A DNA stretch of 64,000 nucleotides from an uncultured Dehalococcoidia bacterium (GTDB lineage: Bacteria; Chloroflexota; Dehalococcoidia; Lucifugimonadales; UBA3495): assembly GCA_951813535.1 (NCBI GenBank), contig OX638345.1, forward strand, positions 11,029 through 75,028, given 5' to 3'. Shown here in pieces: positions 25,657 through 27,224 of this stretch; position 1 is the first letter of the stretch, and every line of letters begins with the position of its first letter. The position numbers were made by a program, and so were the translations under genes. Below the pieces are notes generated by a model. It did no database searches, was not told the origin of the DNA, and saw only the letters and a list, made by a program, of their open reading frames with translations.

Positions 25657-26163
25657 CGGTATCACGAGCCCCGGCGCCTTCGTCGTACCGGCAACGCCGG
25701 CGGATCGACATTTCAAACGCCGCAGCGCGTTTGCCGATATTGCAACAGGCGTCCCGCACCTCGGGCATTCGCGCGGGGTACGGGACGCCTGCGCCGTTTC
25801 CGCAGATCTCTCTTCCAACACCGCGGTCAGACTCCCGTCGCGCCTCCCACCATACCCGTGTCGCCCGCCGACCGCGCCACTCCTCCCGCCGTCCCTGTCC
25901 CCCTCCCGCCGTCCCTGTCCCCCGTCATCGCTGTCCCCCTCCGTCTTGCCGGCGAAAGCAGGCATCCAGCAACCCCGCGATACAGCAGCCGCAAACCTGT
26001 CACGTTCCCGCCCCACCGCGCCGTCGACAGGCCATCCTGTCCATCCTGTCCATCGAAGTAAGTTCAACCCCCGGCCTGCCAAGCGGAAAATCCCTGACAC
26101 CGGCGTCTCACAACTGCCAGAACCCCCGTGCTAACATGGTTCCACAGGCGAAAACTCGACCCC

Positions 26164-26368
26164 GACCAGGTCCCAGGCAACACGGCCAATCAGCACCAAG
26201 TCGCTACCGGCCTTTGTGGCGGACTGTCTCTGACCGATCTAATCAGGGTAGTCCTCCCGGCCACCGGGCCCGCAACAGCCCGCCATGCTTCAGGCATGGA
26301 CAATAAGAGCAAAAAGCCACAGCGCAACACCTCCGGCCGTAGGGCTGATACACGCCTGGGACCTGGTC
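26164..26368 (+). ncRNA. Candidate structured ncRNA (~205 nt; 6S-like rod with branched apex)
   Basis: Perfect 15-bp closing helix GACCAGGTCCCAGGC/GCCTGGGACCTGGTC, nested helices ATCAGC/GCTGAT and TTGTGGC/GCCACAG, three apical hairpins, upstream extended -10 TGCTAACAT (26129-26137); strand inferred from the promoter only. Confidence 0.55.
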
Positions 26369-26528
26369 ACCAACCCAATCACCAATCGCCTGTAGCCACC
26401 AACTTACCTGCAATCAATCAATCGCCTGTGAAAACCCAAACCCGGAGGAGCCAACCCATCGCAAACTGACCGCGATCCCAATCCCGTACATCCTGTGCAT
26501 CCATGCAAAAAAGGAGCGCGCGTCCATC

Positions 26529-27224
26529 ATGGGCAGTGTCCAACATCACCAGGCTGAGGCCCGGCGGTTCCTGTCGCTGGCCCGGTCCGACCACAACTCC
26601 GACAATTACGACCGTGCCGCCAACGCGCTGGCCCGGGCGGCCTCTCACGCCGCCACGTCGGCCCTGTTCCACGTCGGCCTGTTGCGCCGGCCCACCCGTC
26701 GCAAGCTGACCAACACTCTGTTCATGCTGGCGAACCAGGGACAAATCTCCAACGGAGGGGTCCGCACCTTCCGGAGCATCTACCAGCTTCCCGACCAACT
26801 GGACGCTGCCAAGCCCGGCCAGCGCCAGCGTCTGTCCCGTCGGGCCCGCAACCGCGTCGCGGCGCTCGTCCGTTCGGTGGAAGGAGCCATCGCTGGCCGT
26901 CCCGCATCAGGACGCGGCCGCCGCAATCGTCCGCCTCGCCGACCCGCGCCCAACTGCGTATCGGAGATCATCGCCCTGCCGGATTACCACGAGATCGCCC
27001 AGGCCCACAACCTGGTGAGCGCGCCCTTGGCGAGACGACCTGACCCTCACGGCTTCTACGCCCGTGGCCGGACGCCGCCGGAGTGCCCCTGTCATCCCGT
27101 GCCGCTGCCCCGCCGCGACGACCGCGACGCCATCGAGTTGTCGCCCCTGTGGAAGCGCGCCCTGGAGCGCACTTTCCGCGTCCCCTTCCCCCACACCATC
27201 CCCATCCATATGGCCGCCGTCTGA
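26529..27224 (+). CDS. Hypothetical protein, N-terminus resembling a HEPN/PaREP1-type helical bundle
   Basis: AAGGAG RBS; EARRFLSLAR...YDRAANALARAASHAATSAL pattern; C-terminal CPCHP. Confidence 0.55.
   Translation: MGSVQHHQAEARRFLSLARSDHNSDNYDRAANALARAASHAATSALFHVGLLRRPTRRKLTNTLFMLANQGQISNGGVRTFRSIYQLPDQLDAAKPGQRQRLSRRARNRVAALVRSVEGAIAGRPASGRGRRNRPPRRPAPNCVSEIIALPDYHEIAQAHNLVSAPLARRPDPHGFYARGRTPPECPCHPVPLPRRDDRDAIELSPLWKRALERTFRVPFPHTIPIHMAAV

Follow-up and report, generated by a model that had tools for sequence, protein, structure and literature searches.

We analysed a 64,000-nt stretch of the genome of an uncultured Dehalococcoidia bacterium (contig OX638345.1; hereafter the window) and found that positions 26108-26430 on its + strand are one copy of a genus-specific structured RNA family. 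The RNA, of about 250 nt, is real, folded, previously undescribed and selected for its fold; as judged from the alignment, a core of about 210 nt probably lies within a transcript of about 250 nt or more. Downstream on the same strand stands its putative partner, the gene for a 231-aa protein (26529..27224) with a predicted HEPN fold, a basic linker and a C-terminal Cys/His domain. In our preferred reading, to which we give a probability of about 0.5, the RNA is a probably SOS-controlled leader or partner RNA of this novel HEPN protein, comparable to the RCd22 RNA of AbiF, and the module that carries it has also multiplied alone.

The structured core occupied 26164..26368 (+ strand), as defined by RNAalifold and by counting pairs in two sets, of 28 and of 65 distinct sequences. 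A direct sequence check revealed a perfect 15-bp inverted repeat, GACCAGGTCCCAGGC/GCCTGGGACCTGGTC, at 26164-78/26354-68. The + strand of 26160-26372 folded to -96.9 kcal/mol, far below its dinucleotide shuffles (mean -70.1 kcal/mol; z = -5.7; 0 of 200 shuffles equal), and the minus strand of the same segment gave z = -3.65. RNAalifold was run on 28 diverse core sequences, after which pairs were counted explicitly and compared with controls in which the 3' partners were slid by 1-3 columns. The results showed that 94.5% of cells were paired across the 45 pairs (slid controls: 34-37%), that 27 of the 45 pairs carried double, compensatory changes (slid controls: 6-11), and that the covariation score reached 0.395 (slid controls: at most 0.075). 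A second set comprised 65 distinct sequences chosen solely for their position upstream of HEPN-like genes in other metagenome-assembled genomes (MAGs); here 93.9% of cells were paired and 37 of the 45 pairs showed double changes (controls: 12-17), figures that are somewhat favourable to the model since this alignment was fitted to it. At least eight unrelated closing-stem sequences were present, with pairing kept in all of them. G-U cells (74) outnumbered A-C cells (35), and for this reason the + strand is favoured as the RNA. The covariance model, R1, scored the window copy at 216 bits. The sequence-only reading had held that so many nested helices reflect selection rather than chance, and the strong covariation among homologues together with the fold z of -5.7 bears this out. 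Its estimate of about 205 nt (26129-26368) captured the core and fell short of the extent, since the conserved unit spans about 26109 to 26429; in the alignment it runs from the promoter (~26109) through a 5' motif (26143-51) and the core to the 3' motif copies (26385-93 and 26421-29), and the transcript would start at about 26144. A coding reading of the open reading frame (ORF) at 26128-26469 was ruled out because 1-nt indels distinguish the copies.

The individual helices differed in their support. The closing helix (26164-78/26354-68), already noticed in the sequence as a perfect repeat, kept its pairing in all stem sequences, and the nested helix AUCAGC/GCUGAU (26189-94/26344-49) changed in a compensatory manner to UUAGC/GCUAA in diverged copies. 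Hairpins 26221-54 and 26283-99 were likewise backed by covariation, and the core also contained GUCGCU/AGCGC (26200-05/26321-25). Three proposed pairings fared less well. TTGTGGC/GCCACAG was paired in just 44% of cells across copies, and hairpin 26256-68 was 76% paired and broken exactly where a competing helix, CGGGC/GCCCG (26265-69/26278-82), covaried (GC to CG, 13:13). The helix CUAC(C)GGCC/GGCCGUAG may exist, with about 89% pairing, but showed no double changes, and A/G variation inside it covaried in 8 of 8 cases with a local hairpin, CCU..AGG, at 26330-43 (CCUCCGGCCGUAGG), an invariant part of the core. A pseudoknot or switch is possible, since the loop of this hairpin, GGCCGU, could also pair with the invariant ACGGCC at 26182-87 (99% complementary); GGCCGU can pair with CCGGCC as well. 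An anti-Shine-Dalgarno (SD) role of the invariant CCUCC was considered and rejected, as distant members have CUCC or CCCC and the distance to the SD sequence varies.

Scanning 25700-26700 with cmscan against Rfam 15 gave no match at gathering thresholds, and at E <= 10 the sole match was a chance miRNA elsewhere in the gap, with no match to 6S; no family, RF00013 included, fits the element. Literature searches yielded no description of this RNA. In favour of the earlier suggestion, a 6S-like RNA that binds RNA polymerase, we found only a length of about 200 nt and ends that pair. The consensus fold is multibranched, with at least five helices inside the closing stem, and not a rod with a central bubble; and the 12 copies in this genome, at least 76 in another and the confinement of the family to one genus stand against the one or two copies and the broad spread expected of 6S. 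On covariance model, shape and copy number we rejected this identification, which is extremely improbable.

A scan of GTDB species genomes recovered 72 loci with relatives of the 231-aa protein, all of them in Dehalococcoidia MAGs. Of the 67 loci in other MAGs that had at least 650 nt of upstream sequence, 66 gave an R1 match to the RNA upstream and on the same strand, and the linkage held down to homologues of 29-40% identity. In the most distant class the RNA ended 40 nt ahead of the start codon and must therefore belong to the 5' untranslated region. The spacer between RNA and gene varied from 40 to 680 nt, and no terminator was predicted between the window RNA and the ORF at 26529. All 25 genomes sampled from the genus encode the protein, which was also seen in 0-1 of 16 further families from the same order; the RNA was present in 28 of 31 genomes of the genus. 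The other 150 genomes across the order (89 genera in all, its own included) gave one weak RNA match. This covariance-model match, in another family (genome G070), lay inside a coding region and was discarded as spurious. These results agree with one option of the sequence-only reading, an RNA partner of the adjacent HEPN-like protein; both the synteny and the fold of the protein fit it, and a functional RNA-protein partnership would follow by analogy with RCd22/AbiF.

The 93 homologues of the 231-aa protein were all unnamed Chloroflexota/Dehalococcoidia proteins without Pfam domains, the protein itself had no sequence match in the PDB, and its match to the Pfam HEPN family was weak (E = 0.0096). 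An AlphaFold2 (AF2) model with a predicted local distance difference test (pLDDT) score of 90 comprised an N-terminal five-helix domain, a basic disordered linker and a small C-terminal domain. The top Foldseek matches of the N-terminal domain, 2hsb (template modelling score 0.81), 1wol and 3o10, were all HEPN domains, so that on the model this domain has the HEPN fold. The C-terminal domain (residues 138-231; window 26940-27221) carried invariant D172, H174, C186, C188 and H189, and its confident AF2 model (pLDDT 88) found no Foldseek match in the PDB; as modelled, it may represent a new small metal-binding fold.

The promoter of the element (26108..26137, + strand) consisted of a weak -35, TCACAA, a LexA-type box, GAACCCCCGTGC (26120-31), and an extended -10, TGCTAACAT (26129-37), which the box abuts and overlaps. 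The -35 was of the CCCTTGCC type in most copies and only TCACAA in the window copy. The claim that the RNA has its own promoter with an extended -10 held up, as TGCTAACAT is conserved within the element. Eight close copies showed no variation in GAAC, in the G that follows four bases on or in the -10; the box reads GAAC-N4-G(T/C)(T/G)C and was a perfect GAACGTCTGTTC in the group C copies described below. The LexA-type box, GAAC-N4-GTKC, occurred under a strict pattern in 50 of 79 copies, compared with 0.1 expected, and a looser pattern gave 57 boxes, 49 of which lay 40-49 nt before the closing stem. The LexA of Dehalococcoides reportedly uses the motif GAACN4GTTC, a finding attributed to Fernandez de Henestrosa et al. 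in 2002. This same sequence is the Bacillus-type SOS box, or LexA operator (PMC4234289). In the present genome, which encodes a LexA homologue (C1:1288562-1289194), the recA promoter reads TTGCAT-N-GAACGCGCGTGC-TAAACT with the box laid out as in the element, this arrangement recurs at a SplB-like radical-SAM repair gene, and lexA carries GAACATTAGTTT. Because the promoter spacer and the -10 carry a LexA-type operator, the RNA is probably under LexA control and hence induced by DNA damage. Boxes of the form GAAC-N4-GYKC abutting a -10 were also observed at G000 C1:1349798 (minus strand), before a gene for a small helix-turn-helix protein, at 1574188 (minus, the SplB-like gene) and at 3676671 (plus, recA); these candidate SOS promoters offer a starting set for the LexA regulon of the lineage.

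At the putative transcript start, the conserved 5' motif CACAGGCGA (26143..26151, + strand) covaried between subfamilies with the 3' motif: the RNA 5' end, ACAGGCGA, is complementary to AUCGCCUGU, which occurs at 26385..26393 (direct repeat D5) and again, as the second unit of the repeat, at 26421..26429 (both + strand). The copy number of the 3' motif ranged from 1 to 4 between subfamilies. The subfamily pairs were ACAGGCGAU/AUCGCCUGU, GUCAGGC/GCCUGAC (3' motif three times), AUCGGGC/GCCCGAU (twice), GUCGGGU/ACCCGAC (four times) and GUCAGGUG/CACCUGAC. Across the 79 copies the longest exact 5'/3' complement averaged 7.6 nt (shuffles: 5.7 nt), and the 3' motif was present at least twice in 34 of the 57 scorable cases. 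Such paired ends would stabilise a discrete RNA, and together with the element's own promoter they lend some support to free-standing, damage-induced sibling small RNAs (sRNAs) that act in trans by base pairing or protein sequestration and have nothing to do with the HEPN protein. Multicopy sibling sRNAs are known in other bacteria, and in copies of group B (below) the end is formed by a GC-rich hairpin (GGCGGCAG...CUGCCGCC) with a short tail that is poor in U. This possibility leaves the near-absolute synteny with HEPN genes unexplained, however; no canonical terminator was predicted in the window copy, and we identified no conserved single-stranded seed that has evident targets. We regard it as less likely than the preferred reading, and as quite improbable overall.

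BLASTN and an nhmmer profile located 12 diverged copies of the element in the 4.38-Mb single-contig genome. Group A comprised three copies, including that of the window, with a paralogue of the 231-aa ORF after each; group B comprised five copies ahead of unrelated genes; group C, three diverged copies ahead of dinB, a PHP-plus-DinG-like pair and an acyl-CoA dehydrogenase gene; and group D, one decaying copy. Thus 9 of the 12 copies preceded unrelated genes (dinB, the PHP/DinG pair, fur and others), and all 12 were aimed at the next downstream gene (about 2e-4 by chance). The number of copies per genome ranged from 1 to 72 (G011, 3.3 Mb) and at least 76 (G022, which has 23 HEPN-like genes). 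The repeated unit began about 55 nt before the 15-bp repeat, at the promoter, and ended 25-170 nt after it; in G011 it measured about 520 nt and took in sequence upstream of the promoter. In G011, a divergent gene lay upstream in 17 of 20 copies, and none of the 20 stood in a convergent gap. G000, G009 and G015 carry the element at the orthologous site upstream of a B12-radical-SAM gene, whereas nine congeners lack it there. Recent bursts resemble insertions, not strictly oriented, into gaps that bear promoters; by contrast, the older, diverged copies of the present genome are all co-oriented with a gene downstream.

These observations raise the alternative of a selfish, non-autonomous mobile DNA, similar to a miniature inverted-repeat transposable element (MITE) or a "mobile promoter", whose fold and promoter serve its own spread. 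The 12 copies here, the at least 72-76 near-identical copies in congeners, the presence/absence polymorphism (three genomes with, nine without) and, in G011, the lack of a clear orientation bias, the preference for divergent promoter regions and the avoidance of convergent gaps all speak for it; and because the unit includes sequence upstream of the transcription start, the module is copied as DNA. Its structure speaks otherwise. The 15-bp repeat is internal and the unit asymmetric, its two ends do not match as inverted copies, and neither terminal inverted repeats nor target-site duplications were seen on comparing the filled with the empty site and at the copy boundaries (for duplications, five B-copy boundaries, which are blurred by divergence and neighbouring repeats). 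No matching autonomous insertion sequence (IS) was found, the only adjacent transposase, that of the IS110 described below, being coincidental (one of its four copies); several local helices inside the unit show independent covariation, and G-U cells are biased towards one strand; the tie to one protein family persists over about 30-100% identity; and the 12 copies here are co-oriented with their downstream genes. The sequence-only reading had stated that many scattered copies with target-site duplications would mark a MITE: scattered copies were abundant, duplications were not seen, and the homologues covary strongly, so that a plain MITE does not account for the element. As an account of the whole family, selfish spread is unlikely. 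For the solo copies it is a serious partial rival, one that could well operate alongside a cellular function of those copies that are linked to HEPN genes.

Further candidates for the nature of the element were tried and rejected. An IS110 bridge RNA was excluded, as only one of four IS copies lies near the element, which is situated outside the IS and has its own promoter; the IS in question, of the IS110 family (G000 C1:1174473-1175393, locus L007), exists in four near-identical copies, one of which ends about 75 nt from the left edge of an element. A retron msr/msd, suggested by the paired ends, was set aside, as no reverse transcriptase family occurred among the neighbouring genes examined, namely the gene tables of three other loci and the ORF lists around the 12 own copies, with Pfam run on the HEPN-like gene and one transposase only. 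The core pattern had no match in IMG/VR viral contigs.

The arrangement of the loci also invites comparison with a riboswitch, that is, a leader that senses a ligand or signal and controls downstream genes through alternative pairings of ACGGCC, CCGGCC and GGCCGU. A conserved, aptamer-like fold with covariation and invariant junction nucleotides that are unpaired or alternatively pairable would suit such a leader, as would the constant, co-oriented position of the element ahead of a gene in this genome and the 40-nt distance to the start codon in the distant class. Against this, we found no terminator and no clear SD-sequestering platform, the genes after solo copies share no common pathway, the spacer extends from 40 to 680 nt, and the nucleotide identity across the whole element, together with the bursts of copies, does not resemble riboswitch evolution. 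A riboswitch-like leader is improbable, and less likely than an RNA tied to the HEPN protein.

Under our preferred reading, a sigma70-type promoter with a LexA-type operator would drive the RNA upon DNA damage. The order of promoter, RNA and HEPN-fold gene on one strand would be ancestral and is still dominant, and the RNA would be made as a long 5' leader of the HEPN mRNA, because no terminator is predicted between it and 26529-27224; the synteny is observed, and co-transcription would follow from it. The RNA would act as a partner of the HEPN protein, which may bind or cut the fold or the repeated 3' motif, and by analogy with RCd22 it would set protein expression in cis and neutralise or titrate the protein in trans. 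The promoter-plus-RNA module has also multiplied alone, and in this way it may supply extra RNA, place neighbouring genes under the same promoter, or both.

Several observations weigh against this reading. The protein has no invariant Rx4-6H; its invariant residues are H6, H7, R36-A-A-S-H40 (Rx3H), R82 and R109, and because the canonical motif is not evident, the HEPN protein may not be an RNase. Scans of Pfam, PADLOC and NCBIfam gave no match to Abi_2 or any toxin family. The link to LexA is one of motif resemblance. In some genomes RNAs far exceed HEPN genes in number, with 72 RNAs and two HEPN genes in G011, and in that genome only 13 of 20 copies were oriented toward the next gene and seven were antisense-tandem, which resembles selfish spread more than regulation. 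Some solo copies precede genes that keep their own promoter, as for the B12-radical-SAM gene, whose promoter lies downstream of the element. Finally, the only public sequencing runs that held the sequence were DNA-metagenome-like, and two RNA-labelled runs of the same label held none.

A more far-reaching proposal is that the RNA and the HEPN/Cys-His protein form a new damage-induced ribonucleoprotein system, in which the solo copies would serve as a distributed pool of antitoxin or decoy RNA, or as RNA tags through which the HEPN protein would control neighbouring genes, and so constitute a genome-wide post-transcriptional SOS regulon that a self-propagating RNA module has built; we consider this doubtful. 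In a still bolder variant, the co-varying 5' and 3' motifs would be part of an RNA- or single-stranded-DNA-based copying mechanism that moves the module.

Comparison with known systems placed the element nearest to RCd22, the abiF motif RNA of Clostridioides difficile, which forms a type III-like toxin-antitoxin with AbiF, a HEPN toxin of the Abi_2 family (PMC12373285). RCd22 lies upstream of the toxin gene, which it represses in cis, and by binding the toxin directly it neutralises it in trans. RCd22/AbiF is the closest experimentally characterised analogue, and the likeness would concern mechanism, not membership. In both, a structured RNA stands directly upstream of a HEPN-superfamily gene on the same strand. 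The present RNA, by contrast, has no Rfam match, is far larger and multibranched, and has a LexA-type promoter and many solo copies, whereas the present protein has no Abi_2, PADLOC or NCBIfam match, lacks an evident Rx4-6H and bears an extra Cys/His domain. The type III systems ToxIN, CptIN and TenpIN likewise have an RNA gene before the gene of an RNA-directed protein, and short repeated RNA motifs (here the 3' motif, in 2-4 copies). However, ToxI-type antitoxins are tandem 34-36-nt repeats that are processed by the toxin and followed by a terminator before the toxin gene, whereas the present RNA is one large fold with repeats of only 7-9 nt and no predicted terminator; the toxin fold is ToxN-like there and HEPN here. 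HEARO/IscB omega-RNAs of the IS200/IS605 type share the large structured RNA directly upstream of an ORF, the high copy number and the many ORF-less copies, but the element has no Rfam match, its 231-aa HEPN protein differs from an HNH/RuvC nuclease, and neither TnpA nor IS ends nor a guide-like variable segment came to light. Promoter-bearing MITEs, such as the Correia elements of Neisseria, and "putative mobile promoters" resemble it as short, dispersed intergenic repeats with an outward promoter and presence/absence polymorphism that can be transcribed into structured RNA; they differ in that here no terminal inverted repeats or target duplications were seen, internal helices covary, and the tie to a protein family is fixed. 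In E. coli, an SOS-box promoter drives an RNA/toxin-type module in tisB/istR and symER. These LexA-regulated loci belong to type I, where antisense RNAs accompany small membrane peptides or SymE; the present RNA would instead be a sense leader of the HEPN gene, and its SOS box has the GAAC-N4-GTTC form.

The analysis thus adds a large and well-supported structured RNA family, absent from Rfam, in a major uncultured marine lineage (Dehalococcoidia/SAR202-like MAGs), and one that combines features rarely found together: near-obligate HEPN linkage, a LexA-like promoter and dozens of copies per genome with the fold kept. It also explains to annotators the long "empty" gaps ahead of these genes. 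If the RNA does control or neutralise the HEPN protein, the logic of type III-like RNA antitoxins would reach into the SOS response and take in a new family of proteins; should the module be self-mobile, it would provide a clear natural example of a promoter and leader that rewire gene regulation as they propagate.

Around the translation start of the HEPN gene, a conserved SD-like GGAGGAG followed by AUC GCA AAC UGA (26444..26469, + strand) recurred in other copies, several of which were followed by similar frames of 3-5 codons (AUC GCA ACA ...). This mini-frame may be an upstream ORF or the relic of a translation initiation region with an AUC start; distant HEPN homologues begin with AUC after GGAG. 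In 12 of these distant homologues (L093-L098, L101, L104, L106-L108 and L117), ATC (10 cases) or ATA (2 cases) replaced ATG, 8 nt past GGAG (position 1501). Isoleucine-codon starts are apparently conserved in them, and IF3-sensitive translational control may be involved.

Other repeats and short frames accompanied the element. A heptamer-repeat motif, CATCCTGTCCATCCTGTCCATC (26033..26055, + strand; direct repeat D3), was a recurrent companion upstream of the promoter, and a second one, ATCCCGTACATCCTGTGCATCCATGCAA (26481..26508, + strand; D3), lay just ahead of the ribosome-binding site of the HEPN gene. The motif takes the form (A)ATCC(T/C)GT two to three times, then CCATGC(A/C)AA, and was observed upstream of many element promoters and also alone at orthologous sites without the RNA (L146-L150); it looks like a separate genome-wide repeat, either REP-like or a regulator site. 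A tandem 20-nt repeat, CCTCCCGCCGTCCCTGTCCC, was present in 2-3 units at window 25882-25942, upstream of the element in the same long non-coding gap. In the G011 subfamily (L122-L141), a conserved AAAGGATGACCCATCATGACTTGACCAAACC about 30-90 nt past the 3' motif reads as a short ORF (MTHHDLTKPP...) or may be a sequence motif, and other copies had short frames of the MPPSTRAPPP- or MK(P/R)LPN-type.

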